From: Candidatus Woesebacteria bacterium
GTDB taxonomy: Bacteria > Patescibacteriota > Microgenomatia > UBA8517
Assembly (NCBI GenBank): GCA_016700095.1
Contig: CP065002.1
Location: 867,141 to 931,140 of the forward strand
Reading direction: 5' to 3'
DNA: 64,000 nucleotides
Shown here: one piece after another, positions 32,652 through 63,148 of the stretch
How positions within the stretch are numbered: position 1 is the first letter of the stretch
Layout: the number at the start of each line of letters is the position of its first letter
The notes under the pieces: generated by a model
Database searches by the model: none
Told to the model about the DNA's origin: nothing
The model's input: the letters and a program-made list of their open reading frames with translations, nothing else
Translations under genes and position numbers: made by a program

Positions 32652-32693
32652 GGGTTATTGATAATTTATAAGTCTAGAAATATAATTACTTAA

Positions 32694-34712: not shown

Positions 34713-34714
34713 GT

Positions 34715-35605: not shown

Positions 35606-35749
35606 ATTAGTTACACAAGTTATAGTTAACTCAGTGTAAAATCATCGGTATATGTTGTCTTTTGACTTTGAGTGTTAAGGATTTCATACATGTCAAATTA
35701 GTGTTGAAAGAGGAAATTATTAACCATGTAACTATTTTAATCCGGTTTT

Positions 35750-45532: not shown

Positions 45533-45533
45533 A

Positions 45534-46400
45534 CTAAGTTATTATCAGTATAACACCACCAAACATTATGACTGCACCGACAAGTTTATTTGCAATGTAC
45601 GTTTCATGAAAGAAATACCAACCAAATAAAGTATTGAATATTATCGCTAGTTTGAAAATTGCCGTTACCAAACCAAGGTTTTGCATACTAAACGCTAAAT
45701 AGGCACATGTTTGACCAACAGCCCCCAGTATCCCAATAAGTAAATATGTTTTTTTGTCCTTCGCTATACTAACCAAAGGACGTACCTTGTTTTTTATCAG
45801 TAACAAAGAAAGAATGAGTGTAGAAATAATTAATCCTACAAAAGAAGCAAAAGGGGGAACAGCAGGATAGGTGTTCTGAATGGCAATTTTTTCAAATATC
45901 GGAGTAACGCTCCATATTAGGTATGCAAGTAGCGCAAGTCGGACACCTTTTTCATTAAAAGTTTCCATAAAAGATGAAATAACATTTTTGTAGTTTTTTT
46001 GCCGCAGAAGATATGTCCCCACGACAATAAATATAATTCCTAAAATGTCTCGTCCGCCTAGCTTTTCTTTTAGCAAAAGATAAGAGACTATGGCAGTAAA
46101 TGCCGGATTATAAGCAGACATTGAACTTACAAGTGACAGATCAGTTGTTTTTAGAGCTTTATAAACCAATATCGCCGCGAGTGTTCCAAGGGTAGAACTA
46201 ATTAGGATACTTACAATAAAGATGTGATTAATAAAGGGGATTTGATATTTAATAATAATTATCAAAAAAAGAAATAGTATTACAAGTAACTGTGATACGA
46301 ACAAATAAACTCTCTCGTCGGTTGCACGTAAAATCTTTTTGGCGAATACGTTAGTAACCGATGAAGTTAGTGCAAAGGATATTGAGTATAAAAACCACAT
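45534..46400 (-). CDS. EamA/DMT-superfamily 10-TM transporter
   Basis: 288 aa with two repeated 5-TM halves. Composition is typical of EamA domains. Confidence 0.6.
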   Translation of the reverse strand: MWFLYSISFALTSSVTNVFAKKILRATDERVYLFVSQLLVILFLFLIIIIKYQIPFINHIFIVSILISSTLGTLAAILVYKALKTTDLSLVSSMSAYNPAFTAIVSYLLLKEKLGGRDILGIIFIVVGTYLLRQKNYKNVISSFMETFNEKGVRLALLAYLIWSVTPIFEKIAIQNTYPAVPPFASFVGLIISTLILSLLLIKNKVRPLVSIAKDKKTYLLIGILGAVGQTCAYLAFSMQNLGLVTAIFKLAIIFNTLFGWYFFHETYIANKLVGAVIMFGGVILIIT

Positions 46401-46430
46401 TTACGTTGTTAACTAGCCTATCGGAGATAT

Positions 46431-47213
46431 TTATTTTTTATCATAATAATGTAGTATTTTTAGTTTGTTATAAACAGCCAAGGTGTCCCACGCCATTTTG
46501 AATGGCGAGTTGGGATTAAATATGGGAAAAAATTGGATTCTACTTTTACCTACATTAAAGTTTAGCTCGATCGGTGCTTCGTAAATTCTTGTATATCCCA
46601 TGTGGTTTGCAAGAGCCAGCATTTCAATGTCCATGGCAAATCTATCAATTGATAGTTTGGGGAGAATTTTTTTAATGACTTCTTTTTTAAATATTTTTAT
46701 CCCGCTTTGGGTGTCTGTCAGAGATAAACCAAAAAGTAATTTAATACCGAAAGAATATCCGACACTTAGTATCCTCCTTAATAACGGGTAATCAAGTTTG
46801 GACGCAGGGTGTCGTTTACTGCCGACAATTACATCTGCATCGTACCATTCCATATGAGCGAGTAACATCATAATTCCCTTTTCTTTGATGTCGCGACCTG
46901 CATCCATGAAAGATATCAAATCTCCATTCGCTTCTTTCATACCGGTACGGACAGCATACCCCTTGCCCCTATTTTCTTTATAACTAATAAACTTGAGGTT
47001 CGAATAATGAAGTTTTTTTACCTCCGCAGAGGTGTTATCAAACTGGCCATCTTCAACGCAGATTATTTCAAAGTCGTATTTCTCCGGTAACCCTTGTTTT
47101 AATGTTTTAATCAATATTTCTAGATCCGTTTTGATAGTTTTCCCCTCCTTGTAGGAAGGAACCACAATTGAAACTAGTGTCTTTGTACTTTTCTTCATAC
47201 TACGTTTTAACAT
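46431..47213 (-). CDS. GT2, DPM1/GtrB-like glycosyltransferase (soluble)
   Basis: VSIVVPSYKEGKTI...ICVEDGQFDNT...ENRGKGYAVRTG...FMDAGRD. Confidence 0.7.
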   Translation of the reverse strand: MLKRSMKKSTKTLVSIVVPSYKEGKTIKTDLEILIKTLKQGLPEKYDFEIICVEDGQFDNTSAEVKKLHYSNLKFISYKENRGKGYAVRTGMKEANGDLISFMDAGRDIKEKGIMMLLAHMEWYDADVIVGSKRHPASKLDYPLLRRILSVGYSFGIKLLFGLSLTDTQSGIKIFKKEVIKKILPKLSIDRFAMDIEMLALANHMGYTRIYEAPIELNFNVGKSRIQFFPIFNPNSPFKMAWDTLAVYNKLKILHYYDKK

Positions 47214-48465
47214 AGTTTAAACGCTTTAATTCATTGTAACCCAGGTATACAAATAATACTAAAAGTGTAAAGCCCATAAGTATTGTATTCACATATAAAA
47301 CTTCTCTTATCGTAGAATGAACATTCCAGAGTACAAATATTTGAACGATTGAAGTGACCAATGGAAACATCACTACTTGCGTCCGGTGGATCGACAGTAA
47401 GAAATTTACAATTAAGCTTGCAAGGGTATAAAAAGTAATAAATAAACCCATCCAAACAAGTTCCGGCGCAACAATAAGATAATCCTTTCCATACAAAAGT
47501 CCAATTGCCAGGTCGGGCAGTAAATAGTAGAACACCAAAACCAAAGACGATAATAAAAAGACCGCAGAGACACTTAGATAAAAGGTTGTTCTATAATTCT
47601 CTCCCTTTGAGCGTTTACCTGCGACAATCGGAAACATAACTGAAGCGACTGGTTGCGTTGCAAAAAATATAATTTTCCCCAACATGGAAAGAGCAGCATA
47701 ATACCCTGCAATCGGATTTTCCGGACCGAAGAAATGTTTTATTATAATTAAATCAACGGTAAATATTGATGTAAATGCCATAGCTTGCAGGAGAACAGGG
47801 AAAGCAAATTTAATAATAGGATAGATATTGTAGTCTAATGAGGATTTTTCCGATATTTCCTTTTTGATGACAATTTCAGAATAATAGTATGCCATCACGG
47901 AAGACATAACTATTGCAAAAGTAGCTCCGGGAACTTTGAGTCCAAAGAAAACCAGGACGATACCTAAAAATAACTTCGCCGTACTTGAAATCGAATCGGA
48001 AACAACCACACCTGTAAATTTTAATATTCCCTGAAGGAGCGCTTTGTTTACAATTGTTAACAACATAAAATAAACAATCGGTGCTATAAAAATAAGACTA
48101 TAAAATTCGCCCAAGTGTAAAAAATTCTTCAACGGATAGGCAGATAGAAGCATAACAACACTGGCAATTATCGAAAATCTTTTAAGTAATTTTTTTAAAG
48201 TAAAATATATGTGATCTCTTTCTGATTTGCTTTTGGCTGATGATATAAATTTAACAATCGCAAAACTAGTGGAGGTTGGAATAATTCCGACAATATAAAG
48301 GATAGAGAAAATTATCGCCAAGTTTCCGTAATCAACCGGTCCAAGCACTCTTCCCATCAGAAGATGATAAATATAATTAATTCCGTTATTACCCAAACTT
48401 CCCCCAACCATCAAAAGACTACCAAGAAGCAAAGGGTTTCTAATTAAGTCTTTTGCCTTTTTCAT
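47200..48465 (-). CDS. Wzx/MurJ-like flippase (MOP superfamily)
   Basis: About 12 TM helices. Likely start MKKAKDLIRN at 48465; the ORF-track start at 48513 abuts the gmd stop. Confidence 0.6.
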   Translation of the reverse strand: MKKAKDLIRNPLLLGSLLMVGGSLGNNGINYIYHLLMGRVLGPVDYGNLAIIFSILYIVGIIPTSTSFAIVKFISSAKSKSERDHIYFTLKKLLKRFSIIASVVMLLSAYPLKNFLHLGEFYSLIFIAPIVYFMLLTIVNKALLQGILKFTGVVVSDSISSTAKLFLGIVLVFFGLKVPGATFAIVMSSVMAYYYSEIVIKKEISEKSSLDYNIYPIIKFAFPVLLQAMAFTSIFTVDLIIIKHFFGPENPIAGYYAALSMLGKIIFFATQPVASVMFPIVAGKRSKGENYRTTFYLSVSAVFLLSSLVLVFYYLLPDLAIGLLYGKDYLIVAPELVWMGLFITFYTLASLIVNFLLSIHRTQVVMFPLVTSIVQIFVLWNVHSTIREVLYVNTILMGFTLLVLFVYLGYNELKRLNYVKT

Positions 48466-48513
48466 ACAATCTTGTACGATTATACTGCAGAAAAATGAAG
48501 CGATACAGCGCAA

Positions 48514-49539
48514 CTATTTCAAGCGGGCAATATTGGCATCGACAAGCATTGCAACAAGATCACTAAATTCAGTTCTCGGTTTCCAACCAAGCACTTTCAC
48601 AGCTTTTTTGGGATCGGCAACAAGTGGCCCCGTTTCTGTCGGCCGTACAAACCTCGGGTCAATAGTCACATATTCATTCCAGTCTTTTCCAACATAACCA
48701 AATGCCTCCTCACAAAGCTCACGAATCGTATGCGTTTCACCCGTACCGATTACATAATCGTCTGGCTTACTTTGTTGTAACATTAACCACATACTTTCGA
48801 CATAATCACCGGCAAAACCCCAATCCCTTTTGGCTTCTAAATTTCCCAATGCGACTTTTTTATTTTTAAAAATCGGCTCTCCTTCTTCGTTTAAATGTTC
48901 ACTGGTTTTGATACCCAACTTTGCACACGCTGCCGCATATGTTACTTTCTGAGTAACAAATCCCAAACCACGCCTTGGTGATTCATGATTAAAAAGAATT
49001 CCACAAGAAATAAACATTCCATAGCTTTTCCGATAAATTTTAGCGATGTTATGCGCATACAATTTTGCGGCTGCATATGGGTTCGCGGGATTAAACGGTG
49101 TGTCCTCATTCTGGGGAATTTCTTTCACCCAACCAAACATTTCAGAACTTGACGCTTGATAAAAACGGGCTTTAGGACAGCGTTCGCGTATACATTCCAT
49201 TACACGTTGTGCCCCAACACCTGTTATTTCCGCTGTATGGACGGGCTGTTTAAAAGATTCGGCAGGCGAAGACTGCGAGGCGAGATTATAAACTTCGTCT
49301 ACATCACCTATAACCGAAAGGGCATTGGTAAGTGATACCGGATCCAACAAATCAGCTTGTACGATATTTAATTGATGTTGAAAATGAGCAATATTTGCAT
49401 ACAAAAAGTGACTGGTTTTTCTTACAATCCCCGATACCTCGTAACCTTTTTTCAATAAAAACTCTGCCAAATACGATCCGTCTTGTCCCGTGACACCCGT
49501 AATTAATGCTTTTTTGTTTTTAAGTTTTTTCATTGACAA
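48514..49539 (-). CDS. gmd: GDP-mannose 4,6-dehydratase
   Basis: KKALITGVTGQDGSYLAEFLLKKGYEVSGIVRKTS is the canonical Gmd N-terminus. Downstream ...NIAKIYRKSYGMFISCGILFNHESPRRG matches the Gmd NHESPRRG motif. 341 aa. Confidence 0.85.
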   Translation of the reverse strand: MSMKKLKNKKALITGVTGQDGSYLAEFLLKKGYEVSGIVRKTSHFLYANIAHFQHQLNIVQADLLDPVSLTNALSVIGDVDEVYNLASQSSPAESFKQPVHTAEITGVGAQRVMECIRERCPKARFYQASSSEMFGWVKEIPQNEDTPFNPANPYAAAKLYAHNIAKIYRKSYGMFISCGILFNHESPRRGLGFVTQKVTYAAACAKLGIKTSEHLNEEGEPIFKNKKVALGNLEAKRDWGFAGDYVESMWLMLQQSKPDDYVIGTGETHTIRELCEEAFGYVGKDWNEYVTIDPRFVRPTETGPLVADPKKAVKVLGWKPRTEFSDLVAMLVDANIARLK

Positions 49540-49697
49540 CTTTATTTATATATTAATAATTAGAAAAGTAACTACACTCAACCTGACTCTTTAATAATAT
49601 TTTCAACCCCGAACTTTAACTTTTGATTAATTCAATCATTCGCGAATTAAAACGCGAAGACTTCTTGAATTAGAATAAATTCTAACATACTCGTCAA

Positions 49698-50813
49698 TTA
49701 ATTGATTCCGTAAGCTTTGATTGTCTCTTTGGCCGTAATTGTCCAGTTATATTTCTTAACGTGTAATAACCCCTTGGAAATACATGTCTTTCGTTTTTTC
49801 TCGTTTTTATACAACAAACTAAAAGATTGCGCAAATCCGTCCACACTATCAGGATCAACAAAAATAGCTGCCTTTTCAGCAATTTCCACCAATGCTTGAG
49901 TTTTGCTTGCGACAACCGGAACACCGCAAGCCATGGCTTCAAGAACAGGAAAACCAAAACCTTCCGAAAACGACGGTTGGCAATATACTGTTGCCAAATT
50001 GTATATTTTTACCAAATCCTCGTCACTGACAAAACCCAATCTTTTTACTCTTGGATTATCCTTTAGTAAATCCAGTATTTGCTTGTAATGCTTAACTTCA
50101 GGATGTGGTTTTCCGAAAAGGAATCTCGCCCAATCTCTTGGTCCGTGTAGTTGGGAAATTTCCGAAGTATAATTCTCAATATAAAGCGCTTGTTTCCCCA
50201 CAATAATTAAATCGGTTTTAATTTTGTTGCATGCTTGTATTAAAGTTCCAATATTTTTGTTGTAATTGACGTCACCGACATATAAGACAAATCTTTTGGG
50301 AAGCAAATATTTCTTAACGATATTTTCTTGCCAAGTATCATTCTTTAATTGATTAAAGTGGCTAGCAGGCGCTAAATGCGTGACAAATATCTTTTCGCTT
50401 GGAATACCCAAAAACCTGACAATATCCTTTTTGGATGCCTCAGTATCGGTCACAACTGCGTAAACACGTCGCAGTTGCCTTTTTTGATCTTGTAGTTTTA
50501 CTTTACCTCGCACACCCGAAGGATACTGATTGGGGTGTAAAAGTGGTATCACGTCGTGAATTGTAACTACTATTTTAGCATCAACTTGAGGTAATTTACT
50601 TTCGTAAAGTTTGAAAAACGGAAAATGAATAATATCAAACTTATGAGCATTTTTTATAAGCGTTTGGGTGTCAAGTCCAGTTATATCTAGCGAAAACTCA
50701 CCGGCAATTTTCTCCAAACTTTCAAGTAAATATTTCGTATAAAAACCTACCCCCCTCACTTTGTCTTGTGATTTTAGGGGTCCTATGTCAATTGCTACTT
50801 TCATATCATTCAA
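49698..50813 (-). CDS. GT4 (GT-B fold) glycosyltransferase
   Basis: MKVAIDIGPLKSQDKVRGVGFYTKYLL resembles the GT4/GT1 mannosyltransferase N-terminus. C-terminal SFSEGFGFPVLEAMACGVPVVAS. Confidence 0.75.
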   Translation of the reverse strand: MNDMKVAIDIGPLKSQDKVRGVGFYTKYLLESLEKIAGEFSLDITGLDTQTLIKNAHKFDIIHFPFFKLYESKLPQVDAKIVVTIHDVIPLLHPNQYPSGVRGKVKLQDQKRQLRRVYAVVTDTEASKKDIVRFLGIPSEKIFVTHLAPASHFNQLKNDTWQENIVKKYLLPKRFVLYVGDVNYNKNIGTLIQACNKIKTDLIIVGKQALYIENYTSEISQLHGPRDWARFLFGKPHPEVKHYKQILDLLKDNPRVKRLGFVSDEDLVKIYNLATVYCQPSFSEGFGFPVLEAMACGVPVVASKTQALVEIAEKAAIFVDPDSVDGFAQSFSLLYKNEKKRKTCISKGLLHVKKYNWTITAKETIKAYGIN

Positions 50814-51177
50814 CTAATACATGTTTCTCGGGTGACATTCCCGGAATAGAAGTTACTTTTATCCAAGTACTGTTTCCTTGAGCAAAATGAATTTGACCTG
50901 GCATAATTGTAAAACTCCGTCCAGGTGTGATTGTATGCTCGCGCCCTTCAACGTTAATTATTAGATTGCCTTTTATAACCTCAATTACTTCTTGTGATTG
51001 CCTATGATAATGGGTTATTTTTTTATCAATAACCGCAATATAAACACTTCTTTGTGGATTTAATTCTCTTGATTCAAGTTCACAAATTACTTCACCGGTA
51101 TGAAGTAGATCGTCAACGTATATTTTTTTCCCGGGATAAAGAATTTTCAACTCACTTATTATCTTTTTTGCCTCCAT
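50806..51177 (-). CDS. Small cupin-domain protein (possible sugar isomerase or epimerase)
   Basis: HYHRQSQEVIEVIKGNLIINVEGREHTITPGRSFTIMPGQIHFAQ fits the cupin_2 two-His motif pattern. 123 aa. Confidence 0.5.
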   Translation of the reverse strand: MEAKKIISELKILYPGKKIYVDDLLHTGEVICELESRELNPQRSVYIAVIDKKITHYHRQSQEVIEVIKGNLIINVEGREHTITPGRSFTIMPGQIHFAQGNSTWIKVTSIPGMSPEKHVLVE

Positions 51178-51210
51178 ATTATTTATTGCGTTATTACTTT
51201 GCTCTTTACG

Positions 51211-51954
51211 TTACTTATAATCAGACGGGTAAAGCGTGATTTCAGCCTCATATTCATCTTTCTCAATTATAGCAATAAATTTGTCAGCTACCCACGAAGG
51301 AGTAAAATATGATTTGCCTCGTAAATTTTCCTCAATTTTATCTTCCAGAGACAGTGGGCCGAAATCAGTTAATGTACTACCTAAGTCTATATGAACAAAA
51401 TGAATATTCGACCCATGATATTCAGCGGCAAGTGACAAAGTCATTCCCCTCAAGGCATATTTCGTGGCACAATATACACTCCTGCAAGGAGTAGGGATTT
51501 TACCCATACCCGAACCCACATTTATAACGACAGAGTCCTCGGATTTTTTAAGGTGAGGCAGAAGTTCTTTTGTTAAGTAAAAGGGTGTCGTTACGTTTAT
51601 CGCAACACTATCTTCCCATTCATTAATACCTGCATCTTCTAAACTTTTGTATACACCAACACCAGCTGCATTTACCAAAATATCAATTTTTTCAGTTAAA
51701 CCCAGTATCTTTTCCGCCGTCTCTTTAACTTTTTGTGTTTTTGTTGCATCCATTTGAATGTACTCATGACCATCTCCATCGAGTCTGTCAATCAAATCCT
51801 TGAGTTTACTTTCAGTCCTAGACAGTAAAATAAGTTTCACTCCCTTTTGGGCTAACTTAACTGAAAGTACTGAGCCAATTCCACCAGTTGCACCTGTAAT
51901 AACCGCCGTTTTATTTTTCAAATTCATACTTGATATTACCATATTCGTATTCAC
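51211..51954 (-). CDS. Classical short-chain dehydrogenase/reductase (SDR)
   Basis: KTAVITGATGGIGSVLSVKLAQKG (TGxxxGxG), NAAGVG, and the catalytic YCATKYAL (YxxxK). The start may be ATG at 51927. Confidence 0.8.
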   Translation of the reverse strand: MNTNMVISSMNLKNKTAVITGATGGIGSVLSVKLAQKGVKLILLSRTESKLKDLIDRLDGDGHEYIQMDATKTQKVKETAEKILGLTEKIDILVNAAGVGVYKSLEDAGINEWEDSVAINVTTPFYLTKELLPHLKKSEDSVVINVGSGMGKIPTPCRSVYCATKYALRGMTLSLAAEYHGSNIHFVHIDLGSTLTDFGPLSLEDKIEENLRGKSYFTPSWVADKFIAIIEKDEYEAEITLYPSDYK

Positions 51955-51991
51955 TCTTGCCCTGTGAGTTTAAAATAATTAAAATACTTGT

Positions 51992-52924
51992 ATGCCTACA
52001 AAAATATTCGGCCACAAAGCACCAGATACCGATACCATATGCTCTGCTGTTTCCTATGCATGGTTTCTAAATCAAAAAGACATTGATGCAAAGGCTTATA
52101 GATTGGGAGACTTAAACAAAGAAACACAGTTCGTGTTGGAAAATTTTAATGTCCCTTCACCTGATTTGCTTGGTCACCTTGAGGAAAAAGATAAAGTAGT
52201 AATTGTCGATACCAACAATCCAGAAGAATTACCTGACGACCTTCAAAAGGCCGAAATAATTCAAGTGATTGATCACCACAAATTAACAGGTGGAATTAAA
52301 ACTAACTATCCCATACCGGTAATAATTAAGCCACTTGCTTCAACGGCTACGATTATTTGGAAGCACATAAAACATTCCGGAATTGAAATCGACCTGGCAA
52401 ATGCAGGACTTCTACTCGCAGGGATAATATCCGATACCTTGAATTTAACCAGCCCTACGACAACCGAGAAAGACAGAAGCGCTGTTAAAGAGCTAAACGA
52501 AATTGTCAAACTAGATATCAATGAATTTGCCGGTAAAATGTTTGAAGCGAAGGGTGATTTAACGGGCATGTCGCCTAGGCAAATTGTTTTAGTGGATAGT
52601 AAGATTTTTGAGTTTGGAACGAAGAAAGTTCGGATATCCGTGTTAGAAACAACCAAACCCGATAATGCGCTAAATATGCAATCTGATTTAGAAAAGGATT
52701 TACAAGAATTGAAACTTAAGGAAAATCTCGATTTCGCATTTTTCTTTGCAGTCGATATTCTTAACTCAAGAGCAGTACTCATATCTGGTACTAACGAAGA
52801 AAATAATCTTGCCGAAGAAGCTTTTAACGCTAAGTTTGAGAACGGTAGAATTATGCTCCCCGGTGTAGTGTCACGCAAAAAACAAATAGTACCCGTACTC
52901 CAGACTGTAATCGAAAAACTCTAG
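51992..52924 (+). CDS. ppaC: Family II (Mn-dependent, DHH-family) inorganic pyrophosphatase
   Basis: IFGHKAPDTDTICSAVSYAWFL (H-x-x-PD-x-D motif) and VIDHHKL (DHH motif). The 310-aa length is typical of PpaC. Confidence 0.85.
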   Translation: MPTKIFGHKAPDTDTICSAVSYAWFLNQKDIDAKAYRLGDLNKETQFVLENFNVPSPDLLGHLEEKDKVVIVDTNNPEELPDDLQKAEIIQVIDHHKLTGGIKTNYPIPVIIKPLASTATIIWKHIKHSGIEIDLANAGLLLAGIISDTLNLTSPTTTEKDRSAVKELNEIVKLDINEFAGKMFEAKGDLTGMSPRQIVLVDSKIFEFGTKKVRISVLETTKPDNALNMQSDLEKDLQELKLKENLDFAFFFAVDILNSRAVLISGTNEENNLAEEAFNAKFENGRIMLPGVVSRKKQIVPVLQTVIEKL

Positions 52925-52979
52925 ATAAAGCATAGTATAAAAAGACAACATAATTTAAATTTTTGCGAAAGTAGTATAA

Positions 52980-54182
52980 TTGTTGCAAATGAAAAAATAC
53001 TACGGCGAAGAAACGCGAAAGGCGCTTGATAATTTCCACATGACCAACACCCCGGTTGATCTTCGTTTGATTAAAGCGGTCGCAATTGTAAAACTTGCAG
53101 CCATTAAAGCAAACGTAAAAACCGGCAAAATAAAAAGAGAGCTCGGTCGACCGATAATCAAGGCGGCTAAAGAAGTAATTGACGGAAAACTTGACACTCA
53201 ATTCCCGACCGACCAAATCCAAGGTGGTGCCGGTACGTCAATAAATATGAATGTAAATGAAGTGATTACATCTCGAGCAAATGAAATACTAGGCAGTAGT
53301 TCTATTCATTATTTAGATCATGTCAATTCATCGCAATCAACAAACGATGTAATTCCAACCGCTATAAGAATCGTAATTCTTGAAGAGCTCGGCAAATATT
53401 TGATTTCGTTAAATAAATTGTCAATTACATTTGCCAAAAAAGAAAAAGAGTTTTGCAATATTGTTAAAGTAGGAAGAACCCATTTGCAAGACGCTGTACC
53501 GATTACCTTGGGTCGAGAATTCGGCGCATACAAGAATTTAATCAAAAGAGATATTAAAAGACTTGAGGAAATAAAAAAATATCTTCTTATCACCAATCTG
53601 GGTGGTACAGCAATCGGAACAAGTGAAAATGCTTCCAAAGACTATATCACAGCTATTCATGAATACTTAGAAATGGAAACGGGCTATAAATTCACACCAT
53701 CACATGACTTAGTCGATGCTACTCAAAACATCGACCCCTTGATCCACGCTTCGTATCTCATACAGCTTTCCAGTGTGGGAATATCCAAAATTTGTAGTGA
53801 CTTAAGACTACTTGCCTCAGGACCGCGTGCAGGGTTAGCTGAAATACTTTTACCATCATACCAAAAAGGTTCAAGCATAATGCCGGGAAAAACTAACCCC
53901 GTTATACTGGAAGCTTTTAACCAAGTCACATATCAGGTAATTGGCAATACCCAAGTAGCTACACAAGTAATTCTTGCCGGTGAACTAGAGTTGAACACCA
54001 TGCTTCCCGTTTTTTCAAAGACGATAATAGAGTCATTAACTTTTTTAACCAACGGCATCAATTCGGTAAATGATACCGTTTCAACAATAAAGGCAAATTC
54101 CGAAAAAATTCAATCTAACCTTGATACTAGTCTTGTACTGTCGACTCAATTGTCAAAATTCATTGGATACGACAGAGCATAG
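52980..54182 (+). CDS. Class II fumarase/aspartase-family lyase, terminated by an in-frame TAG about 40 codons before the expected end
   Basis: Signature GSSIMPGKTNP (the GSSxMPxKxN motif), and YGEETRKALDNF at the N-terminus. The protein ends ...IGYDRA* while homologs continue. Confidence 0.75.
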   Translation: MLQMKKYYGEETRKALDNFHMTNTPVDLRLIKAVAIVKLAAIKANVKTGKIKRELGRPIIKAAKEVIDGKLDTQFPTDQIQGGAGTSINMNVNEVITSRANEILGSSSIHYLDHVNSSQSTNDVIPTAIRIVILEELGKYLISLNKLSITFAKKEKEFCNIVKVGRTHLQDAVPITLGREFGAYKNLIKRDIKRLEEIKKYLLITNLGGTAIGTSENASKDYITAIHEYLEMETGYKFTPSHDLVDATQNIDPLIHASYLIQLSSVGISKICSDLRLLASGPRAGLAEILLPSYQKGSSIMPGKTNPVILEAFNQVTYQVIGNTQVATQVILAGELELNTMLPVFSKTIIESLTFLTNGINSVNDTVSTIKANSEKIQSNLDTSLVLSTQLSKFIGYDRA

Positions 54183-54308
54183 TTTCTGGTGACTAAAGCT
54201 ATTGAACACACATCTCAACTAAAAGACGAAGCTATAAACGACAACATCGATGCTCATATAATTGACGCGGTGTTTGGTAAAACAAAGACCGTGAAGAAGT
54301 TTTATTAA
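54183..54308 (+). other. In-frame continuation of the fumarase-family ORF after the TAG (41 codons), retaining homology to the fumarase C-terminus
   Basis: FLVTKAIEHTSQLKDEAINDNIDAHIIDAVFGKTKT is read in the same frame immediately after TAG. This parallels FumC ...[25 protein letters not shown].... Confidence 0.45.
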
Positions 54309-55177
54309 GACTTAATACTCCCTACCCAATACTTCCAATAAGCAAGGGGGAAGTGCATCGCCGAGTAAGCTGACCACAGAAAACCGCGAATTCCATCTTT
54401 GTAACCTTTGTGGCGGATAAATAACATAACAAAAAGATAAGTGGGTTTAATAAATGAAAAATACATAAATTTCCTTTTATTTTTTTTGATTCCAACTTTT
54501 TCCATTTGTCCAGCCGTTATACTTGTATATCTATCGGCGCGATAAAGATAACGATCCAAAGTAGGAGATTCATGGTGTTCAAGATCATTAAACAACCAAG
54601 CAATTTCCCCATCAACTTCCATCAGTTCATGAACGCTTTTGGCAGGTAAACGAGCTTTCCCCTGTTTAATTAAACGAATTACGGCATCCGGATAAACTCC
54701 TGCATGCTTAAGCGGTTTACCGACAAAGTAATTTATACGAGGAATAAAAAATGCACATATTTCACCGGTTTCTTTTCCCAAAGAACCATCTCTTTGCCTA
54801 ATAATTTTTTCGTGTCTTTGGAATAGCTTCCATTTTTTAAGATCTATAATCTTCCTTGACCTTATTTTGTCGTCGTTATTATTTAATATGTTTTGTATTT
54901 CAATTGCTAATTCCTTGGAAACTCTTTCGTCAGCATCAAGTTGTAATATCCAATCTCCTTTTGCTTTTTCGATGGCAAATTGCTTTGTCTGATGGAAGTT
55001 TGTTGTGTGTTTGAATTCATATACTTTAGCACCACATTCTCTGGCAATTGCTATAGTTTTATCAATTGAACCATCGTCAACCACGATTATCTCATCAGCA
55101 ATTGATTTTACGGACAGTAAACAACTTTTTATATTATTTTGTTCGTTTTGAACCGCAAGAACAACTGATAATTTCAT
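54305..55177 (-). CDS. GT2 glycosyltransferase
   Basis: LSVVLAVQNEQNNI...IIVVDDGSIDKT...LQLDADERV (DXD). Confidence 0.75.
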   Translation of the reverse strand: MKLSVVLAVQNEQNNIKSCLLSVKSIADEIIVVDDGSIDKTIAIARECGAKVYEFKHTTNFHQTKQFAIEKAKGDWILQLDADERVSKELAIEIQNILNNNDDKIRSRKIIDLKKWKLFQRHEKIIRQRDGSLGKETGEICAFFIPRINYFVGKPLKHAGVYPDAVIRLIKQGKARLPAKSVHELMEVDGEIAWLFNDLEHHESPTLDRYLYRADRYTSITAGQMEKVGIKKNKRKFMYFSFIKPTYLFVMLFIRHKGYKDGIRGFLWSAYSAMHFPLAYWKYWVGSIKS

Positions 55178-55183
55178 AGTGAA

Positions 55184-56608
55184 TTAATACCAAAACTGAT
55201 CTTGAAAATTAATAATAGTTTTGATATTTAGGTGGAGAGCAATTATTGTAAATATAACTAAAATTACTTGCACGATTCTCTTAATAATATTATTATTCGT
55301 TAATTCATACAACATTGGTGGTGTAAGTAATCCTACAAAAGTGTATTGAAATTTTCTAATTTCACTGAGACCAAATTTCTTTTCACCAGTACCATAAATA
55401 TAACTTGAAGCAAACGGAACTGTTAAGACAAAAAAGGTAGAAAGTAATTTTGGTTTTTTTATAACATTTATTATGACATCCGCCATTGCCCATGCTAAGA
55501 ACGGGTAAAAGGGAATTCTATACCAACCTTTGCTGTGCCCTGACATAATGAAAAAAAACACCAAATACGACCCGAGAAAAACTGGAATTATAATATCTTT
55601 TAAGTTTATCTTCCTCCTTTCTCTACTTTGAATACCAATAGCAAATGCTGATATCCAACCAAAAATAATCCAACCATCAACATCCATAACTTTCTCGCCT
55701 ATCCTATATGTAACAAACAAACTAAATATATTCCCTGGTAGATATAACTCCCTACCGCTTGACACATTAATAATTTTGAGAAATATATCTATGTTATAAA
55801 AATATCCATAAACAAACCACGCGAAGACAAAAAGAAATATTGTCCCGGCTAAAACAAGTGATTGTTTGTAGTATTTTAACGCAAATAGGCATCCAAACAC
55901 TGCAATGGGAACGAATATACCAGGAGTTTTATACATTAAACTCGAAGCGCTAACAAAAGAAAGAAGCAAGAGTACAATTATGTTTTTTCTTTTTGTATAT
56001 ATCAACAAAAGCAAAATTGACAACATTGAAGAAAAAGCTATCATGTTCTCGGATAACACCAAACGACTACTTAAAACGAAAGTGGGCACAGTAGCATAGA
56101 TCATAGATGCCAAAAGTGCCTCTATATATCCATGCGTTAACCAAACAACAATAAAAAGTATAAATATACTAAGGGTTGCCAGTTTTATCATCGGATATCT
56201 AACAAGCCCGACATCAACATTTTCGAGATCATATATTCCTTTTGTATACAAATAGCCACCGGTTAACAAACCAAATCCGGGTGGTTCATCAAACCACGGC
56301 TTCACCATTCTAAATTTAGTTCCTCTTATTGTTACCATTGGGAAATCTCCATAATCATCCCAAAAAGACCATGAACTAGGTACTTTATCCTTAATCAGGC
56401 TTAGTCCATTAAAAGGAGCTTTGTATTCATCAGCGGTGTCATTGATTGGGGGGAAAAACGTAAATTTTTCCATACGCAAGTTAAAGCCAAGTCTCGCAAC
56501 TATATATGCAGTAATTAGAACGACAATTAGTTTAGCTGTTTTGTGCGTATTAAAATAGTTTATAACTTTATGTATTCTTTCTCTCAATATTTTATATGTT
56601 ATCGACAT
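55184..56608 (-). CDS. GT-C glycosyltransferase, PMT_2/GT39-like (474 aa)
   Basis: VKPWFDEPPGFGLLTGGYLYTKG is a DE-containing first-loop motif. About 11 TM helices. Confidence 0.6.
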   Translation of the reverse strand: MSITYKILRERIHKVINYFNTHKTAKLIVVLITAYIVARLGFNLRMEKFTFFPPINDTADEYKAPFNGLSLIKDKVPSSWSFWDDYGDFPMVTIRGTKFRMVKPWFDEPPGFGLLTGGYLYTKGIYDLENVDVGLVRYPMIKLATLSIFILFIVVWLTHGYIEALLASMIYATVPTFVLSSRLVLSENMIAFSSMLSILLLLIYTKRKNIIVLLLLSFVSASSLMYKTPGIFVPIAVFGCLFALKYYKQSLVLAGTIFLFVFAWFVYGYFYNIDIFLKIINVSSGRELYLPGNIFSLFVTYRIGEKVMDVDGWIIFGWISAFAIGIQSRERRKINLKDIIIPVFLGSYLVFFFIMSGHSKGWYRIPFYPFLAWAMADVIINVIKKPKLLSTFFVLTVPFASSYIYGTGEKKFGLSEIRKFQYTFVGLLTPPMLYELTNNNIIKRIVQVILVIFTIIALHLNIKTIINFQDQFWY

Positions 56609-56626
56609 CTATAGCTGGTTTTCATT

Positions 56627-57904
56627 TTATAATTTATTTATTATATTTGCCACCTTTTCACCCAATTCAACTGCGTAATTTGTTCCTCTATCCCAAGGAT
56701 AAACTTGTTGAATGTTAGCTAAGTACAGACCTTCAATTGGAGTTTCAAAAGGTGGTATTTGCTTAGAATAATTAAGGGGAATTATTGGTTGTGCAAACGA
56801 AGCCTTGAATACATAGCTATCATTTATCCAAGACTTATTAAAAGATCGATTAATTCTTTTTAACGACGTGGTAAATTCATTAACGAGTGCTTCTTGTGTA
56901 TATGAGAAATACTTATGATTAACGGGTAAATAATTTCCAATATAAACTAAGTTTTCATCGTTGTAGTGTTTTTTATCTATAAGATGTGTATGTTCGACAA
57001 CAGCGAGAAATGGAAACGATGTATCGTTCACATTTAACCAATAAGTATTGTCTTTTAGAAATTCGTGTTTTAATGACAACAGAAGTGTTATGGCGCCCAA
57101 TCCCTTAAGCGGTTTTAAACTATTTATATAACCTTGGGGTAACCCGCTTGTTAATTTTATAAACATACTCGTTGGAAGAGTGCAAATCACAAAATCATAT
57201 TCGTTAGGTGTTCGCCCCTTGTTTGTGATTAATATTCCCTTTTTAGTTTTTTCAATTCCAATTGTTTCTTCATTGTAAATAATTTTTCCTCCTTCTTTCT
57301 GAAATTCATCTGCGATGCTTTGCGCAAACGCTTGAAAACCCTCCTCGGGATATCCCAAAGCCGAACTTCTTTTTTTTATTCTTGCCCAAAACCATGATGC
57401 CGGAATCTCTTTGGAGAAGTCACCAAACTTACCTTCCATCAAAGGTTGCCAAATTAATTGCCAAGATTTTCTACCCATATATCTTTCCAGATAATTATGA
57501 GCAGTCTGCGATTCCATTTTTTTCCAAAAAGGCGTAGTTTTTAAATAAGCAAGTACCATGCCGGTTCGAATCCTGTCAGTTACGGATAATTGGGAAAATT
57601 GCAGTAAACTTAAGGGGCTGTCAAGTTGAAATAATTCATCTTTAATAATAACTGATGTTTTTGGTCTAGAAAAAATTATCGGGTGATGTATTTCTTTGGC
57701 AAGTTTTTTGATATACGTATCTGAAGTAAACCAATGATGATAGTGTTCTTCAATAGCCCACTCCCATTTGCCGGCTCGAAAGCCACTCGCCAAACCGCCG
57801 GGTTTTGATGAGGATTCATAAATAGTTACACCGTGTCCCTTTTTTGCCAAAGTTAAACCAGCCGTTAGGCCCACATAACCAGCACCGATTATTCCAATTT
57901 TCAT
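56627..57904 (-). CDS. Rossmann-fold FAD/NAD(P)-dependent oxidoreductase (amine-oxidase / protoporphyrinogen-oxidase / UDP-galactopyranose-mutase-like superfamily)
   Basis: MKIGIIGAGYVGLTAGLTLAKKGHGVTIYESSSKPGGLASGF is a GxGxxG dinucleotide-binding motif followed by an acidic residue and GG. 425 aa. Confidence 0.6.
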   Translation of the reverse strand: MKIGIIGAGYVGLTAGLTLAKKGHGVTIYESSSKPGGLASGFRAGKWEWAIEEHYHHWFTSDTYIKKLAKEIHHPIIFSRPKTSVIIKDELFQLDSPLSLLQFSQLSVTDRIRTGMVLAYLKTTPFWKKMESQTAHNYLERYMGRKSWQLIWQPLMEGKFGDFSKEIPASWFWARIKKRSSALGYPEEGFQAFAQSIADEFQKEGGKIIYNEETIGIEKTKKGILITNKGRTPNEYDFVICTLPTSMFIKLTSGLPQGYINSLKPLKGLGAITLLLSLKHEFLKDNTYWLNVNDTSFPFLAVVEHTHLIDKKHYNDENLVYIGNYLPVNHKYFSYTQEALVNEFTTSLKRINRSFNKSWINDSYVFKASFAQPIIPLNYSKQIPPFETPIEGLYLANIQQVYPWDRGTNYAVELGEKVANIINKL

Positions 57905-61321: not shown

Positions 61322-63148
61322 CTATTGATTAGCATATATTTCAAAGGCGGGTTCATTATTCAAAAAGTATACAGTTTCGTATTTTTTCCATCCACTAGGC
61401 ATATTTCCGGGTGAGGTGATTAACAAACATTTTATTTCATTGCAATTAATATCCCCACCACTTTCAAGCACAAAGTGGTTTTCTTCTCTATCGCCACTTT
61501 TTATTTGCCAATCATTGACAAAATAAAACTTATCAAATGCATCTACCCAAAACCATTCCGTTTGCTCAAAACGAATGAGATTCGGATCATTCCGATACGA
61601 CTCGGGTTTCCATCGCCATGGCGCCCCACCCCCAACCCCTCCGTAGAAAAGAAAAAATTCGTGAGGTTCACCGTATTTTTTAGTCACTATTATTTTGTCG
61701 TAATCGTAATAGTACTGTTTAGTGTATTGAACTACTTGTTGATACCCGTATTGCCAACTCCATGAATAGTTACTTCTATATGAAGTAAAGTATCCATGCA
61801 AATAGTTCTCGGCGGATAAGATTATCAAGAAAATATAAATTGGTGTTATTATCCATGCCATATTTTTTAAAGTTATACGTTTTCCCTTGTTAACGAAATT
61901 CATAAACGTTAAATAACCAAATGCAGTTATAATCATTGGTGAAGGAAGCATTGTCGAGGAACGTAAAACATGTGGTGCTTCCCGAGTAATACTCGACGCA
62001 ATAGGTCCGACAAAAAACCAAAAAAGAATAATATTTCCTACTCTGTTTTTTAGTCTCAACAAAGCAAAGACTCCGATTACAAGAAATATTGCGTTAATAA
62101 TATAGAGTAACCCGTGTTTGGGAACGCTAAACTGATATTGACTACCGCCGTCGGTAAACAAATAATCACCCTTAAAATGAGATGTCCAATTGCTTGCTGC
62201 CTTTTTAATAAAAAATGTTCCCTTATTATGTAAAGCCCGTGCTATAAACGGACTATAAGGTGATGAATTTCGTAATTCATCAATTTGTGCAATTGCACCC
62301 TCGTCAACTATTTCCACTTTACTGTATCTAGCTTGTCCAGCAGGATTAACCAATTGAGCAAACATGGAAGCTGTAAAGAAAAAGAGAATGATAAACGAGA
62401 ATTTTACCAAATGTACATTTCTAAGATAAATCCCTGCAATTTCCAACCTATAACCTAAAACTAAAATTACGACAAACAAGGGAACAAATATCCTTGCTGA
62501 ATTGTAGGTCCAAACGGCTAATCCAAAAAATACTGCCGACCAAACTAAATTCATATATTTTTTCTCTGCCGATATTAGCAAGTAGGTCGCAAACGTAATG
62601 AAAAAGAGCGCAAGATTAGCCTCAAAAGCTGCACGGGAAAGAAATAGTGTCCAGGGTTCAATAGCAACAAGAAACGCTGTAAGTAAAGAGAGATTTTTTA
62701 ATCTTTCTTTTGACGCTATTTCGTTTTGGAAAAGCGTATGTGTCAAGAAATAAGAAACAATTACCAACCCGACACCGGCAAGCATTGAGGGTAATCTCAC
62801 TGCTAGTGTATTTACACCAAATAGTTTTTCCGATAATGCTGTAACATAAATATACACCGGCAATTTATAATCTCCATAAGCACGAAATATTGTTGGCATC
62901 TTCTTACCCCATTCGTCATATCCCGAAGAAAGAAGTGAATATGCATTATAACCATGGCTCACCTCATCCCAATTTAGCGATGGGGGTGTATTGTCAATAG
63001 CTACAAACCGTACAAGAATGGAAAAAACCACAATAGAAAGAAGTGTCATGTTTTTTGTGTTTCTTACTTTGTGAATTACAGGACACGATAAAACACCCCG
63101 ACCACAATTTCGCAGTAAATATTTTATAGTTTTTCTCATAGATTTCAT
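61322..63148 (-). CDS. GT-C glycosyltransferase, ArnT/PMT (GT39/PMT_2)-like. Tandem paralog 3 of 4.
   Basis: DNTPPSLNWDEVSHGYNAYSLL (DE motif). Multiple TM helices and a soluble C-terminal domain. Confidence 0.65.
   Translation of the reverse strand: MKSMRKTIKYLLRNCGRGVLSCPVIHKVRNTKNMTLLSIVVFSILVRFVAIDNTPPSLNWDEVSHGYNAYSLLSSGYDEWGKKMPTIFRAYGDYKLPVYIYVTALSEKLFGVNTLAVRLPSMLAGVGLVIVSYFLTHTLFQNEIASKERLKNLSLLTAFLVAIEPWTLFLSRAAFEANLALFFITFATYLLISAEKKYMNLVWSAVFFGLAVWTYNSARIFVPLFVVILVLGYRLEIAGIYLRNVHLVKFSFIILFFFTASMFAQLVNPAGQARYSKVEIVDEGAIAQIDELRNSSPYSPFIARALHNKGTFFIKKAASNWTSHFKGDYLFTDGGSQYQFSVPKHGLLYIINAIFLVIGVFALLRLKNRVGNIILFWFFVGPIASSITREAPHVLRSSTMLPSPMIITAFGYLTFMNFVNKGKRITLKNMAWIITPIYIFLIILSAENYLHGYFTSYRSNYSWSWQYGYQQVVQYTKQYYYDYDKIIVTKKYGEPHEFFLFYGGVGGGAPWRWKPESYRNDPNLIRFEQTEWFWVDAFDKFYFVNDWQIKSGDREENHFVLESGGDINCNEIKCLLITSPGNMPSGWKKYETVYFLNNEPAFEIYANQ

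Follow-up and report, generated by a model that had tools for sequence, protein, structure and literature searches.

An uncharacterised family of FAD-dependent enzymes associated with GT-C glycosyltransferases in Microgenomates and with PplT flippases in Chloroflexota

In the mycobacterial decaprenyl-phosphate-arabinose system, DprE1/DprE2 stand alongside AftD/Emb glycosyltransferases of the GT-C type, which use polyprenyl-phosphate sugars. In the P. aeruginosa counterpart of this system, the GT-C TfpW puts D-Araf on pilin (10.1101/2020.04.19.049825). A further arrangement is found in MprF and in archaeal AglD (GT2 plus PF03706), where a PF03706/PplT translocator adjoins an enzyme producing a modified membrane lipid or is fused to it; the usual fusion partner of a PplT domain is the enzyme making the lipid that the domain moves (10.1101/2022.03.11.483950; PMC5898192). 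The PplT survey (10.1101/2022.03.11.483950) does not mention a combination of PplT with a flavoprotein, and the words oxidase, oxidoreductase and FAD do not occur in its text. The flavoenzyme considered here, encoded in a window of 64,000 nucleotides from a Candidatus Woesebacteria bacterium, resembles DprE1 in being encoded with polyprenyl-phosphate-sugar-using GT-Cs; AftD-like and PMT-like GT-Cs share its island, and NAD(P)-dependent SDRs are common in its vicinity. However, the two enzymes are not homologous, since DprE1 has a VAO/FAD_binding_4 fold and the flavoenzyme a GR2/amine-oxidase fold. Unlike in the DprE pathway, no UbiA-type phosphoribosyltransferase was seen here, and the SDR is not a conserved partner. 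DprE1 also hands its electrons to menaquinone or O2, neither of which is expected in CPR bacteria. Like the PplT systems, 15 Chloroflexota loci have PplT followed by the enzyme, here the flavoenzyme, as does one fusion with a GT2 in front, although a flavoprotein thereby takes the place of the aminoacyl-PG synthase or glycosyltransferase.

The flavoenzyme is a member of NF005560 (PRK07233), a large family without any characterised member, for which functional statements are drawn from genomic context. The NF005560 model matches over the full length with 399.7 bits (cutoff 252), followed by the models for HpnE (hydroxysqualene dehydroxylase), PPO and PDS; the flavoenzyme scores far under the cutoffs of the HpnE, PDS/CrtI and PPO families. 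The protein keeps intact GxGxxG...E30 and GG motifs at its N-terminus. It has neither a TM segment nor a signal peptide; it is soluble-looking and probably membrane-peripheral. Homologues number more than 6,400 at E<=1e-10 and form 782 clusters at 50% identity at E<=1e-30, and the family occupies more than 591 genome loci across Microgenomates and Chloroflexota. Among 41 family sequences (53-60% identity), 75 residues are invariant, many of them His, Arg, Asp, Tyr and Trp. The closest characterised relatives are HpnE by sequence and PDS by structure, yet NF005560 differs from HpnE, PDS/CrtI and PPO in its own invariant motifs ExHYHHxF (52-59) and VYPWDRGTN (401-409), in its many invariant charged residues, and in hosts that lack squalene/hopanoid, carotenoid and haem pathways. 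Within this interesting but uncharacterised family, the member encoded in the window is an ordinary one.

The original prediction had read three minus-strand genes of the window as a cupin, a classical SDR and a Rossmann flavoenzyme acting as a redox trio. The reading frames and labels hold (matches to Cupin_2, adh_short, and Amino_oxidase plus NAD_binding_8), and the cupin and SDR do lie near gmd, but the trio is not contiguous and belongs to separate operons (Table 1). The flavoenzyme had also been placed just upstream of a tandem array of four PMT-like genes; instead, it is embedded among GT-Cs in a tight minus-strand operon, in which three GT-Cs are transcribed before it and a GT-C and a GT2 after it. 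The leading 255-aa ORF overlaps the next gene by 4 nt and found no match in a family search. The GT-C just upstream of the flavoenzyme is the orthologue of 6279-7973 in locus L010 (49% identity), while the one just downstream has no counterpart between flavoenzyme and GT2 in L010, L011 and L026. The minus-strand genes at 44387..50813 are the remainder of the same ancestral glycan locus, which is split by the plus-strand pair at 51992..54182. Within this pair, an in-frame TAG interrupts the reading frame of the aspartase/fumarase-like gene.

Table 1. Genes of the flavoenzyme operon and of the adjoining glycan locus, in order of transcription of the minus strand
Feature	Coordinates	Strand	Remarks
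255-aa ORF	63145..63912	-	First gene of operon; 4 N-terminal TM segments, soluble C-terminal part
PMT/PMT_2-type GT-C, 608 aa	61322..63148	-	
PMT_2-type GT-C, 570 aa	59556..61268	-	
PMT_2-type GT-C, 548 aa	57907..59553	-	~9 TM; 2 nt upstream of flavoenzyme start
Flavoenzyme, 425 aa	56627..57904	-	FAD; NF005560/PRK07233; PPO/PDS/amine-oxidase fold
PMT-like GT-C, 474 aa	55184..56608	-	Directly downstream of flavoenzyme
GT2 glycosyltransferase, 290 aa	54305..55177	-	Last gene of operon
Aspartase/fumarase-like gene	52980-54182	+	Outside the system
Mn-dependent inorganic pyrophosphatase	51992-52924	+	Outside the system
Classical SDR, 247 aa	51211..51954	-	First gene of downstream operon
Small mono-cupin, 123 aa	50806..51177	-	HxH...E...H metal motif
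GT4	49698-50813	-	Glycan locus, collinear with L010
Gmd	48514-49539	-	GDP_Man_Dehyd E 3.9e-111
Wzx-like flippase	47200-48513	-	Collinear with L010
GT2	46431-47213	-	Collinear with L010
EamA	45534-46400	-	
GT4	44387-45532	-	Collinear with L010

Our comparison of 81 loci, 35 of them pil-type and 15 PplT-type (Chloroflexota), identifies the flavoenzyme as a conserved component in two settings, the GT-C surface-glycosylation operons of Microgenomates (CPR) and the PplT-flippase modules of Chloroflexota. A GT-C occupies position +1 in 42% of loci and position +2 in 46%, against 4.6% at distances of at least five genes (Fisher p = 6e-16, a value that overstates independence as the loci are phylogenetically related), and 58 of the 81 have a GT-C or PplT flippase-like protein no more than three genes from the flavoenzyme. 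Most of the PplT-type loci carry PF03706/PplT directly upstream (position -1 for 14 of 16 matches, -2 for the other two), and in L079 the PplT gene and the start of the flavoenzyme gene share 4 nt. An orthologue of the GT2 follows directly 3', often overlapping, in L010, L011, L026, L087, L088 and L089, but just 13 of 81 loci have, within three genes, a GT2 that might supply a lipid-linked sugar, and the 50 pil-type and PplT-type loci have none. Genes for SDRs, UGDH, HAD-like proteins and methyltransferases often lie close by. In Levybacteria-type loci the flavoenzyme operon comes after pilN/pilO, recalling the GT-C pilin glycosylation by TfpW. Rare fusions, all scoring above the family cutoff, and all single-member clusters derived from metagenomes, join the flavoenzyme to PplT with a GT2 in front, to a ~10-TM membrane domain (three contigs, adjoining AftD-like and PMT_2 GT-Cs), or to a SAM methyltransferase (n=2). 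The proposed functional tie between flavoenzyme and GT-C array is supported by an association conserved across two phyla and by these fusions, and among the three redox genes it is the only conserved association beyond chance.

We tentatively favour a reading in which the flavoenzyme is a cytoplasmic-face FAD enzyme that would act upon a polyprenyl-phosphate-linked lipid feeding the GT-Cs; a flippase (PplT, one of the Wzx type or another) would then translocate the modified lipid, and the neighbouring PMT_2/ArnT-like GT-Cs would use it up. That the substrate is lipid-linked is probable from this context. That the chemistry takes place on the head group is a more hesitant suggestion, and remodelling of a lipid-linked sugar for AftD/PMT-like GT-Cs may be regarded, by analogy, as one of two comparably likely chemistries. 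In the version that we prefer, the substrate would be a polyprenyl-phosphate-monosaccharide whose sugar is remodelled by the flavin, either through ring-carbon oxidation as in DprE1 or, more likely in these quinone-less anaerobes, through a UGM-like isomerisation that is redox-neutral. A flavin dehydrogenase would need an electron acceptor, and none is known from CPR bacteria. Head-group chemistry is supported by the mobile-loop Arg170 of UGM, which aligns with the invariant R175, by retained equivalents of H56 and N268, by the abundance of His, Arg, Asp, Tyr and Trp among the invariant residues, and by the SDR, UGDH, HAD-like and methyltransferase genes so often found nearby. Against a sugar substrate, HpnE and PDS work on isoprenoid chains, and the flavoenzyme-adjacent GT2 resembles transferases of the GmaR/SunS type (its closest solved relatives, over the N-terminal part only) and not polyprenyl-phosphate-sugar synthases of the GtrB/DPMS type. 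A generic lipid substrate fits at least as well, given the scarcity of nearby GT2 genes.

In the second chemistry the flavoenzyme would modify the lipid carrier's own isoprenoid chain and serve all GT-C modules of the cell, for example by saturating an isoprene unit, the alpha one or another (which would yield a dolichol-like carrier of the kind that PMT-type GT-Cs prefer), by desaturation or by cis/trans isomerisation. As a complete account this is rather unlikely, but several features are consistent with it: the constant partners (GT-C, PplT) handle lipids while sugar-specific genes vary, 68 of 81 loci have no GT2 close by, and very high conservation suggests a single universal substrate. 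The window carries at least 12 GT-Cs and one flavoenzyme copy, and its second GT-C module (28919-38773, syntenic with L003/L005) has no flavoenzyme in cis. A reductase would suit anaerobic, quinone-free hosts, and in L090 a ferredoxin gene lies two genes downstream; BfaA/BfaB provide a precedent for an FAD-reductase and methyltransferase pair acting on lipid double bonds. However, so many invariant polar and charged residues would be unusual in an enzyme with a hydrocarbon tunnel, the UGDH, SDR and HAD-like neighbours are left unexplained, and the PplT partners already known act on head groups. A 2026 review (PMC13586052) describes neither a bacterial pathway to alpha-saturated polyprenols nor a PDS-like polyprenol reductase.

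The leading interpretation of the original prediction, a soluble Glf-like pyranose/furanose mutase of a nucleotide sugar (UDP-Galf, UDP-Araf or similar) whose product is afterwards loaded onto a lipid carrier, is improbable. The reaction is redox-neutral, as suits anaerobes, UGDH and extended-SDR neighbours could supply UDP-pentoses, and alignment with E. coli Glf by hhalign spans 259 columns at 25% identity, adding a shared P[FY]xxxxEH strand to the residues named above; yet the hhalign probability is just 45% local and 27% global. Pfam GLF (PF03275) has no match at E<=0.01, and no UGM model is present among the best 25 of 36 NCBIfam matches (weakest of these E 6e-5). The essential Arg278 of UGM (R280 in KpUGM, where the R280A mutant is inactive) is replaced by Ala301, Tyr151 by Leu and W156 by Phe, and Tyr181 and Phe182 fall in a deletion. 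The full-length match is instead of the amine-oxidase/PPO/PDS type (Amino_oxidase E 1.2e-20 over residues 12-397), in a protein 60 residues longer than Glf with a PPO/PDS-like C-terminal part, and the PplT and polytopic-membrane-domain fusions indicate a lipid rather than a soluble substrate. By the standard that the original prediction had set, such a full-length match lacking Glf features defeats the Glf reading.

Still less probable is a single DprE1/DprE2-like unit, in which the flavin would oxidise a lipid-linked sugar, the SDR reduce it to the epimer and the cupin act as isomerase. Orthologues of the SDR do accompany the flavoenzyme in three other Woesebacteria-type loci (L087-L089), 2-5 kb downstream of the flavoenzyme-GT2 pair, with a cupin homologue in just one (L088), and other lineages have a different NAD(P) enzyme nearby, such as the HpnA/3beta-HSD-like extended SDR within three genes in 8 of 35 pil-type loci. 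Nevertheless, opposite-strand housekeeping genes divide the genes between operons, and each locus has its own set of genes in between (AKR, DHODH, SET, IS200-type transposase). In L010, L011 and L026 the GT2 is directly followed by GT4, with neither SDR nor cupin. Finally, it is highly unlikely that the flavoenzyme is an ordinary housekeeping enzyme (PPO, amine oxidase or carotenoid desaturase) placed in the glycosylation island fortuitously, as the JGI label "protoporphyrinogen oxidase" on many homologues and the full-length Amino_oxidase match might suggest, since the PPO model TIGR00562 gives 21.8 bits against a cutoff of 97.85, the CrtI and PDS models match the N-terminal FAD motif alone, the GT-C/PplT synteny is kept across two phyla, fusions exist, and CPR bacteria are not known to have haem or carotenoid pathways.

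The SDR and cupin are outside the flavoenzyme unit and look like lineage-specific additions heading the GT4-Gmd-Wzx operon. With Gmd they look like insertions, because the uninterrupted orthologous locus L010 lacks all three. The SDR (adh_short E 3.6e-44) has the motifs TGxxxGxG (TGATGGIG), NAAG and YxxxK, which upholds its assignment as a classical SDR, but only generic SDR, FabG and hydroxybutyrate-dehydrogenase models match, all under their cutoffs. The cupin shows Cupin_2 (E 2.5e-8) and beyond this only weak PMI-like similarity, and overlaps the downstream GT4 by 8 nt. Most likely, the two tailor a nucleotide sugar or sugar phosphate within the GT4-Gmd-Wzx operon. The public annotation starts the SDR at Met10 (238 aa, 51211-51927), and 51927 is the probable start.

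The flavoenzyme, a 425-aa FAD protein, belongs to a family whose genes sit beside those of membrane glycosyltransferases (GT-Cs) or of the lipid-flippase domain PplT. By exact matches the window lies on a 1.27-Mb contig of a Candidatus Woesebacteria bacterium (Patescibacteria/Microgenomates). The entire 64-kb window is a glycosylation island (GC ~35%) with at least 12 GT-C genes, one of them AftD-like, along with numerous genes for GT2, GT4 and methyltransferases and two for Wzx-like flippases. The three ORFs of the original prediction were recovered at their coordinates, all on the minus strand, and their labels as a cupin, an SDR and a FAD-Rossmann protein hold by Pfam. They do not form the single redox unit that had been proposed, since the SDR and cupin lie in a separate operon, beyond two plus-strand housekeeping genes. 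The flavoenzyme operon is tight and runs from the 255-aa membrane ORF through three PMT_2-type GT-Cs to the flavoenzyme, which begins 2 nt from the preceding GT-C stop, and on to a fourth GT-C and a GT2. The plus-strand genes that come after it encode a Mn-pyrophosphatase and an aspartase-like protein, and the second minus-strand operon carries the SDR and cupin at its head, then GT4, Gmd, Wzx, GT2, EamA and GT4. In the public annotation the SDR begins at Met10, giving 238 aa.

Features of the window discussed in the text (window positions; MT, methyltransferase)
Feature	Position	Strand	Remarks
Cupin_2 protein	50806-51177	-	Pfam E 2.5e-8
Classical SDR	51211-51954	-	Pfam adh_short E 3.6e-44; TGATGGIG, NAAG and YxxxK motifs
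Flavoenzyme, 425 aa	56627-57904	-	NAD_binding_8 and full-length Amino_oxidase, residues 12-397, E 1.2e-20
Membrane ORF, 255 aa	63145-63912	-	Opens flavoenzyme operon; 4 N-terminal TM segments and soluble domain; no match in Pfam or NCBIfam
PMT_2-type GT-C	61322-63148	-	Precedes flavoenzyme
PMT_2-type GT-C	59556-61268	-	Precedes flavoenzyme
PMT_2-type GT-C	57907-59553	-	Precedes flavoenzyme
Fourth GT-C	55184-56608	-	Flavoenzyme operon
GT2	54305-55177	-	End of flavoenzyme operon
Aspartase/fumarase-like gene	52980-54308	+	In-frame TAG at 54180-54182
AftD-like GT-C	15081-18038
Second GT-C module	28919-38773		GT-C, GT2, GT2, GT2, MT, MT, GT-C
GT2 within second module	32694-33614		On the opposite strand
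Island ORF, 902 aa	7642-10350		No match in Pfam
Island ORF, 552 aa	18022-19680		No match in Pfam
Island ORF, 656 aa	23351-25321		No match in Pfam

The flavoenzyme is a full-length, ordinary member of the known but orphan family NF005560 (PRK07233), which it matches with 399.7 bits (cutoff 252) over residues 1-423 and profile positions 1-429 of 435. This family carries the name 'hypothetical protein' only, and we found no mention of PRK07233 in the literature searched. Homologues number more than 6,400 at E<=1e-10, with 782 clusters of 50% identity at E<=1e-30, and the cluster names of distant members are uninformative. Among GTDB species representatives more than 591 loci hold a homologue, essentially in Microgenomates (Levy-, Woese-, Davies-, Roizman-, Blackburn-, Gottesman- and Chisholmbacteria) and Chloroflexota (Anaerolineae, Thermoflexus, Ardenticatenales and Caldilineae). 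Identity within the CPR is unusually high (53-60%), with 75 invariant positions that include ExHYHHxF (52-59), W171/F172/R175/R179, Y185-P186, P298-F299...E304 and VYPWDRGTN (401-409). Many contigs (L007, L015, L016, L018, L024-L027 and others) are titled 'uncultured Gammaproteobacteria bacterium', yet have Microgenomates-type gene content and synteny; these titles are apparently mislabels produced by an automated pipeline.

The Amino_oxidase profile (PF01593) is covered at positions 3-417 of 443, the GR2 FAD-fold motifs (N-terminal GxGxxG...E and GG doublet) are present, and the predicted structure resembles those of PDS, PPO and MAO. Fold comparison gave values of 34.5 for rice PDS, 33.5 for B. 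subtilis PPO, 31.1 for a eukaryotic UDP-galactopyranose mutase (UGM, 4dsg) and 26.8 and 24.2 for bacterial UGM (3hdq and 4mo2), so that fold alone cannot tell a PDS-like from a UGM-like function. Single-sequence and profile searches of the PDB returned N-terminal FAD-motif matches only and no close solved relative. The next-best NCBIfam models score far under their cutoffs, with PRK07208 at 66 bits, HpnE (TIGR03467) at 60 bits versus 283, PPO (TIGR00562) at 21.8 versus 97.85 and crtI_fam (TIGR02734) at 30 versus 238, the last at the N-terminus only, the likeness to CrtD/CrtI being confined to the N-terminal motif. As all these scores fall below curated cutoffs, equivalog identity with HpnE, PPO or PDS-CrtI is rejected, and so is a housekeeping PPO/amine-oxidase reading, on the family cutoffs together with the conserved synteny.

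This synteny was assessed in 81 loci, with ORFs called by a simple longest-ORF rule and neighbour classes assigned with HMMs from window genes and neighbour clusters. A GT-C occupies position +1 in 42% and position +2 in 46% of loci, versus 4.6% at five or more genes off (Fisher p = 6e-16, a value that overstates independence because the loci are related). Within three genes of the flavoenzyme there is a GT-C or PplT protein in 58 of the 81 loci, and a GT2 in only 13. The Levybacteria-type layout (35 loci) reads PilN, PilO, a 107-aa protein, a 465-aa Big_13 surface protein, flavoenzyme, GT-C, GT-C, often followed by an HpnA/3beta-HSD-like extended SDR and then by a 181-aa protein with a DxD motif, which we read as putatively HAD-like; one such locus, L019, shows a 4-nt overlap between the flavoenzyme start and the gene before it. 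This layout suggests pilus or surface protein glycosylation in the CPR, a subject on which we found in the literature searched only the TfpW precedent and nothing on the NF005560 family. In the Chloroflexota-type layout (15 loci) a PF03706/TIGR00374 'flippase-like' gene (PplT) lies upstream, at position -1 in 14 of 16 hits and overlapping the flavoenzyme start by 4 nt in L079, and a UDP-glucose 6-dehydrogenase (UGDH) gene follows in 7 or 8 of the 15, the two counts differing by one. The remaining 31 loci, the window among them, are of Woese- and other types and combine GT-C arrays with GT2, GT4 or methyltransferase genes. As far as we could find, this conserved coupling of the flavoenzyme family to GT-C and PplT is undescribed so far. 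In the Levybacteria-type loci (about 35, in L013-L054, e.g., L019 5095-14266) the flavoenzyme and two GT-Cs directly extend a type IV pilus operon, and the 465-aa Big_13 protein is Thr/Pro-rich with TM segments at both ends.

The same partners recur in fusion proteins, all of which score above the NF005560 cutoff (382-461 bits) and to which we give moderate weight because they form single-member clusters. One (P0369; L091 1826-5415) joins PplT to the flavoenzyme and is preceded by an overlapping GT2. PF03706 is the flippase domain of MprF, and PplT is typically fused to the enzyme producing its translocated lipid, as in MprF and archaeal AglD (10.1101/2022.03.11.483950; PMC5898192). Another fusion (P0333, three contigs, e.g., L090 8001-13504) joins a polytopic membrane domain of ~10 TM segments to the flavoenzyme and is flanked by AftD-like and PMT_2 GT-Cs, GT2, ferredoxin and a radical-SAM gene; in L090 the fusion gene is followed by GT2, a small ferredoxin, which could act as electron donor, and the radical-SAM gene. 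Two examples of a fusion with a class-I methyltransferase mirror the gene order of L003 and L005, where the methyltransferase follows the flavoenzyme.

Identity with UGM (Glf), which the original prediction had entertained, does not survive. The Pfam GLF profile (PF03275) gives no flavoenzyme match at E<=0.01, no UGM model is among the 25 of 36 NCBIfam matches listed (down to E 6e-5), and UGM sequences in the PDB match essentially at the N-terminal FAD motif only. For comparison of residues we used E. coli K-12 Glf (EcUGM) from its annotated record and the active-site residue table of PMC3322874. UGM has two essential arginines that bind the diphosphate, R170 and R278 (R174 and R280 in KpUGM), and the KpUGM R280A mutant is inactive (PMC3322874). 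The hhalign alignment spans 259 columns, of which 25% are identical, and has a probability of 45%. In it, EcUGM H56, R170 of the mobile loop and N268 are conserved as H56, the invariant R175 and N291, the aromatic character of W156 is retained in F160, and H59 is replaced by F59, A. fumigatus UGM likewise having Phe. Y151, W156, Y181, Y311 and Y346 are conserved UGM aromatics that bind nucleotide or phosphate. Y151 is lost to Leu155, Y181 and F182 fall within a 9-residue deletion and have no counterpart, and R278 is lost to Ala301. Only the first of the two arginines is thus kept. From these comparisons we conclude that the flavoenzyme is not a UDP-galactopyranose mutase. For the C-terminal UGM residues E298, Y311, R340 and Y346 the global hhalign alignment was unreliable; a manual alignment suggests that D348 pairs with D405 and R340 with Asn397. 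The kept positions may allow a UGM-like geometry for a substrate lacking a nucleotide.

DprE1 is likewise not a homologue, as Pfam finds no match to its VAO-type FAD_binding_4 fold and structure prediction gives an amine-oxidase/PDS type. The likeness to DprE1/DprE2-AftD/Emb lies in the probable supply of GT-C glycosylation by lipid-linked donors, which is also the likeness to TfpW pilin arabinosylation in P. aeruginosa, to the Arn pathway and to three-component O-antigen modification. Among the parts of a three-component extracytoplasmic glycosylation system (a GtrB/DPMS-type GT2 for the polyprenyl-P-sugar, a small flippase and a GT-C), GT-Cs are present, and the adjacent GT2 resembles GmaR/SunS through its N-terminal part alone and matches PpgS and Dol-P-hexose transferase weakly; no GtrA was seen, and Wzx and EamA genes lie in the neighbouring operon.

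The flavoenzyme is a cytoplasmic protein whose sequence has neither a TM segment nor a signal peptide. It probably acts at the cytoplasmic face on a polyprenyl-phosphate-type membrane lipid, and the lipid product would be flipped and then used by the GT-Cs. Two chemistries of similar weight compete for this step. We have a weak and tentative preference for remodelling of the sugar on a polyprenyl-P-monosaccharide, based on the kinds of genes found as partners (PplT, GT2, methyltransferase, SDR, UGDH and HAD-like), the large number of polar and aromatic residues that are invariant, and the retention of Arg, His and Asn as in UGM. Modification of the carrier's isoprenoid chain, which we rate somewhat lower, would accord with the activity of the nearest characterised relatives, HpnE and PDS, on isoprenoid chains, with the lack of a nearby GT2 at most loci, with the single flavoenzyme copy in the window, and with the second GT-C module, which is syntenic with L003/L005 and has no flavoenzyme in cis. 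The CPR are generally regarded as quinone-free anaerobes, which makes a flavin reaction that is redox-neutral or reductive likelier than a DprE1-type dehydrogenation. The polyprenol reductases in a 2026 review are of the SRD5A3 type only (PMC13586052), and our literature search found nothing joining polyprenol reductase, phytoene desaturase and dolichol.

It is somewhat unlikely, in our estimate, that NF005560 catalyzes a reaction for which no enzyme is known, be it lipid-level sugar remodelling or polyprenyl-phosphate saturation. Sugar remodelling would here be a flavin-dependent, redox-neutral reaction on the sugar while it is linked to polyprenyl phosphate, carried out by a pyranose-to-furanose mutase or a single-enzyme epimerase, and would take the place of DprE1/DprE2, without homology to them, in anaerobes that lack quinones. 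A saturase would yield dolichol-like carriers and would be the first bacterial polyprenyl-phosphate saturase. In either case NF005560 would define the donor lipid on which the very large GT-C repertoires of Microgenomates and Anaerolineae draw, pilus-operon GT-Cs among them. CPR/Microgenomates and Anaerolineae encode unusually large GT-C sets, and the flavoenzyme family provides a concrete handle on their chemistry because it directly adjoins GT-Cs or the lipid-flippase domain.

For the window itself the outcome is corrective: the three genes are not one redox unit, the flavoenzyme is not Glf and the locus is an ordinary one. In L010, from another Patescibacteria genome, counterparts of the window genes (36-52% identity) stand in one unbroken row of four GT-Cs, flavoenzyme, GT2, GT4, PIG-V-like GT-C, Wzx, GT2 and GT4, an order with which L011 and L026 agree, and SDR and cupin homologues were not found in these three loci. 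By this comparison the SDR, cupin, Gmd, EamA, fourth GT-C and two plus-strand genes are lineage-specific insertions, and the window locus is an ordinary conserved Microgenomates glycan-assembly operon with such insertions into the ancestral locus. The Gmd slot is taken by an 8-TM protein in L010 (11315-12451), L011 (11082-12212) and L026 (11110-12348). In L010 this protein has 378 aa, 8 TM segments by inspection, an N-terminal FDGEHY motif and no match in a PDB search; judged from the motif alone, the protein in these loci looks like a PIG-V-type GT-C.

SDR orthologues are common in Microgenomates (45-73% identity), and in three Woesebacteria-type loci one lies 2-5 kb downstream of the flavoenzyme-GT2 pair, with intervening genes that vary by locus (aldo-keto reductase, DHODH, SET, IS200-type transposases). 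The cupin recurs in one related locus only, L088. A role for the SDR as a conserved DprE2-like partner is rejected because it belongs to the other operon, is absent from L010, L011 and L026 and is separated by varying genes. The junction between GT2 and SDR looks like a hot spot of rearrangement, consistent with the variable insertions there. In L088 (9244-9927) and L089 (9225-9905) the opposite strand carries an IS200/Y1-type transposase directly upstream of the SDR, and L088 also bears a 54-aa SDR fragment. In NCBIfam the SDR has generic matches only (SDR, FabG and hydroxybutyrate-dehydrogenase models), every one below cutoff. The cupin has the metal motif HxH...E...H and weakly resembles small 'mannose-6-phosphate isomerase' cupins; Cupin_2 is its sole profile above cutoff (MPI_cupin_dom, 19.9 bits versus 27), NCBIfam gave no match and the PDB a weak one to the small cupin 7zvm (E 3e-4). 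Identity as a sugar-nucleotide isomerase/epimerase (FdtA, RmlC) or PMI is not supported, as no family-specific profile exceeded its cutoff. Because the NCBIfam and PDB matches are generic or weak, no specific function is assignable to either protein; their place at the front of the GT4-Gmd-Wzx operon suggests that they may tailor a sugar phosphate or a nucleotide sugar.

Elsewhere in the window, the second GT-C module is collinear with L003/L005 (38-64% identity), where the flavoenzyme follows the third GT2 and precedes the methyltransferase; the corresponding slot of the window holds the opposite-strand GT2, and the sole flavoenzyme copy is 20 kb away. Beyond its in-frame TAG, the reading frame of the aspartase/fumarase-like gene runs on for ~42 codons resembling the missing C-terminal segment, for which a pseudogene, a sequencing error or stop read-through are possible explanations.
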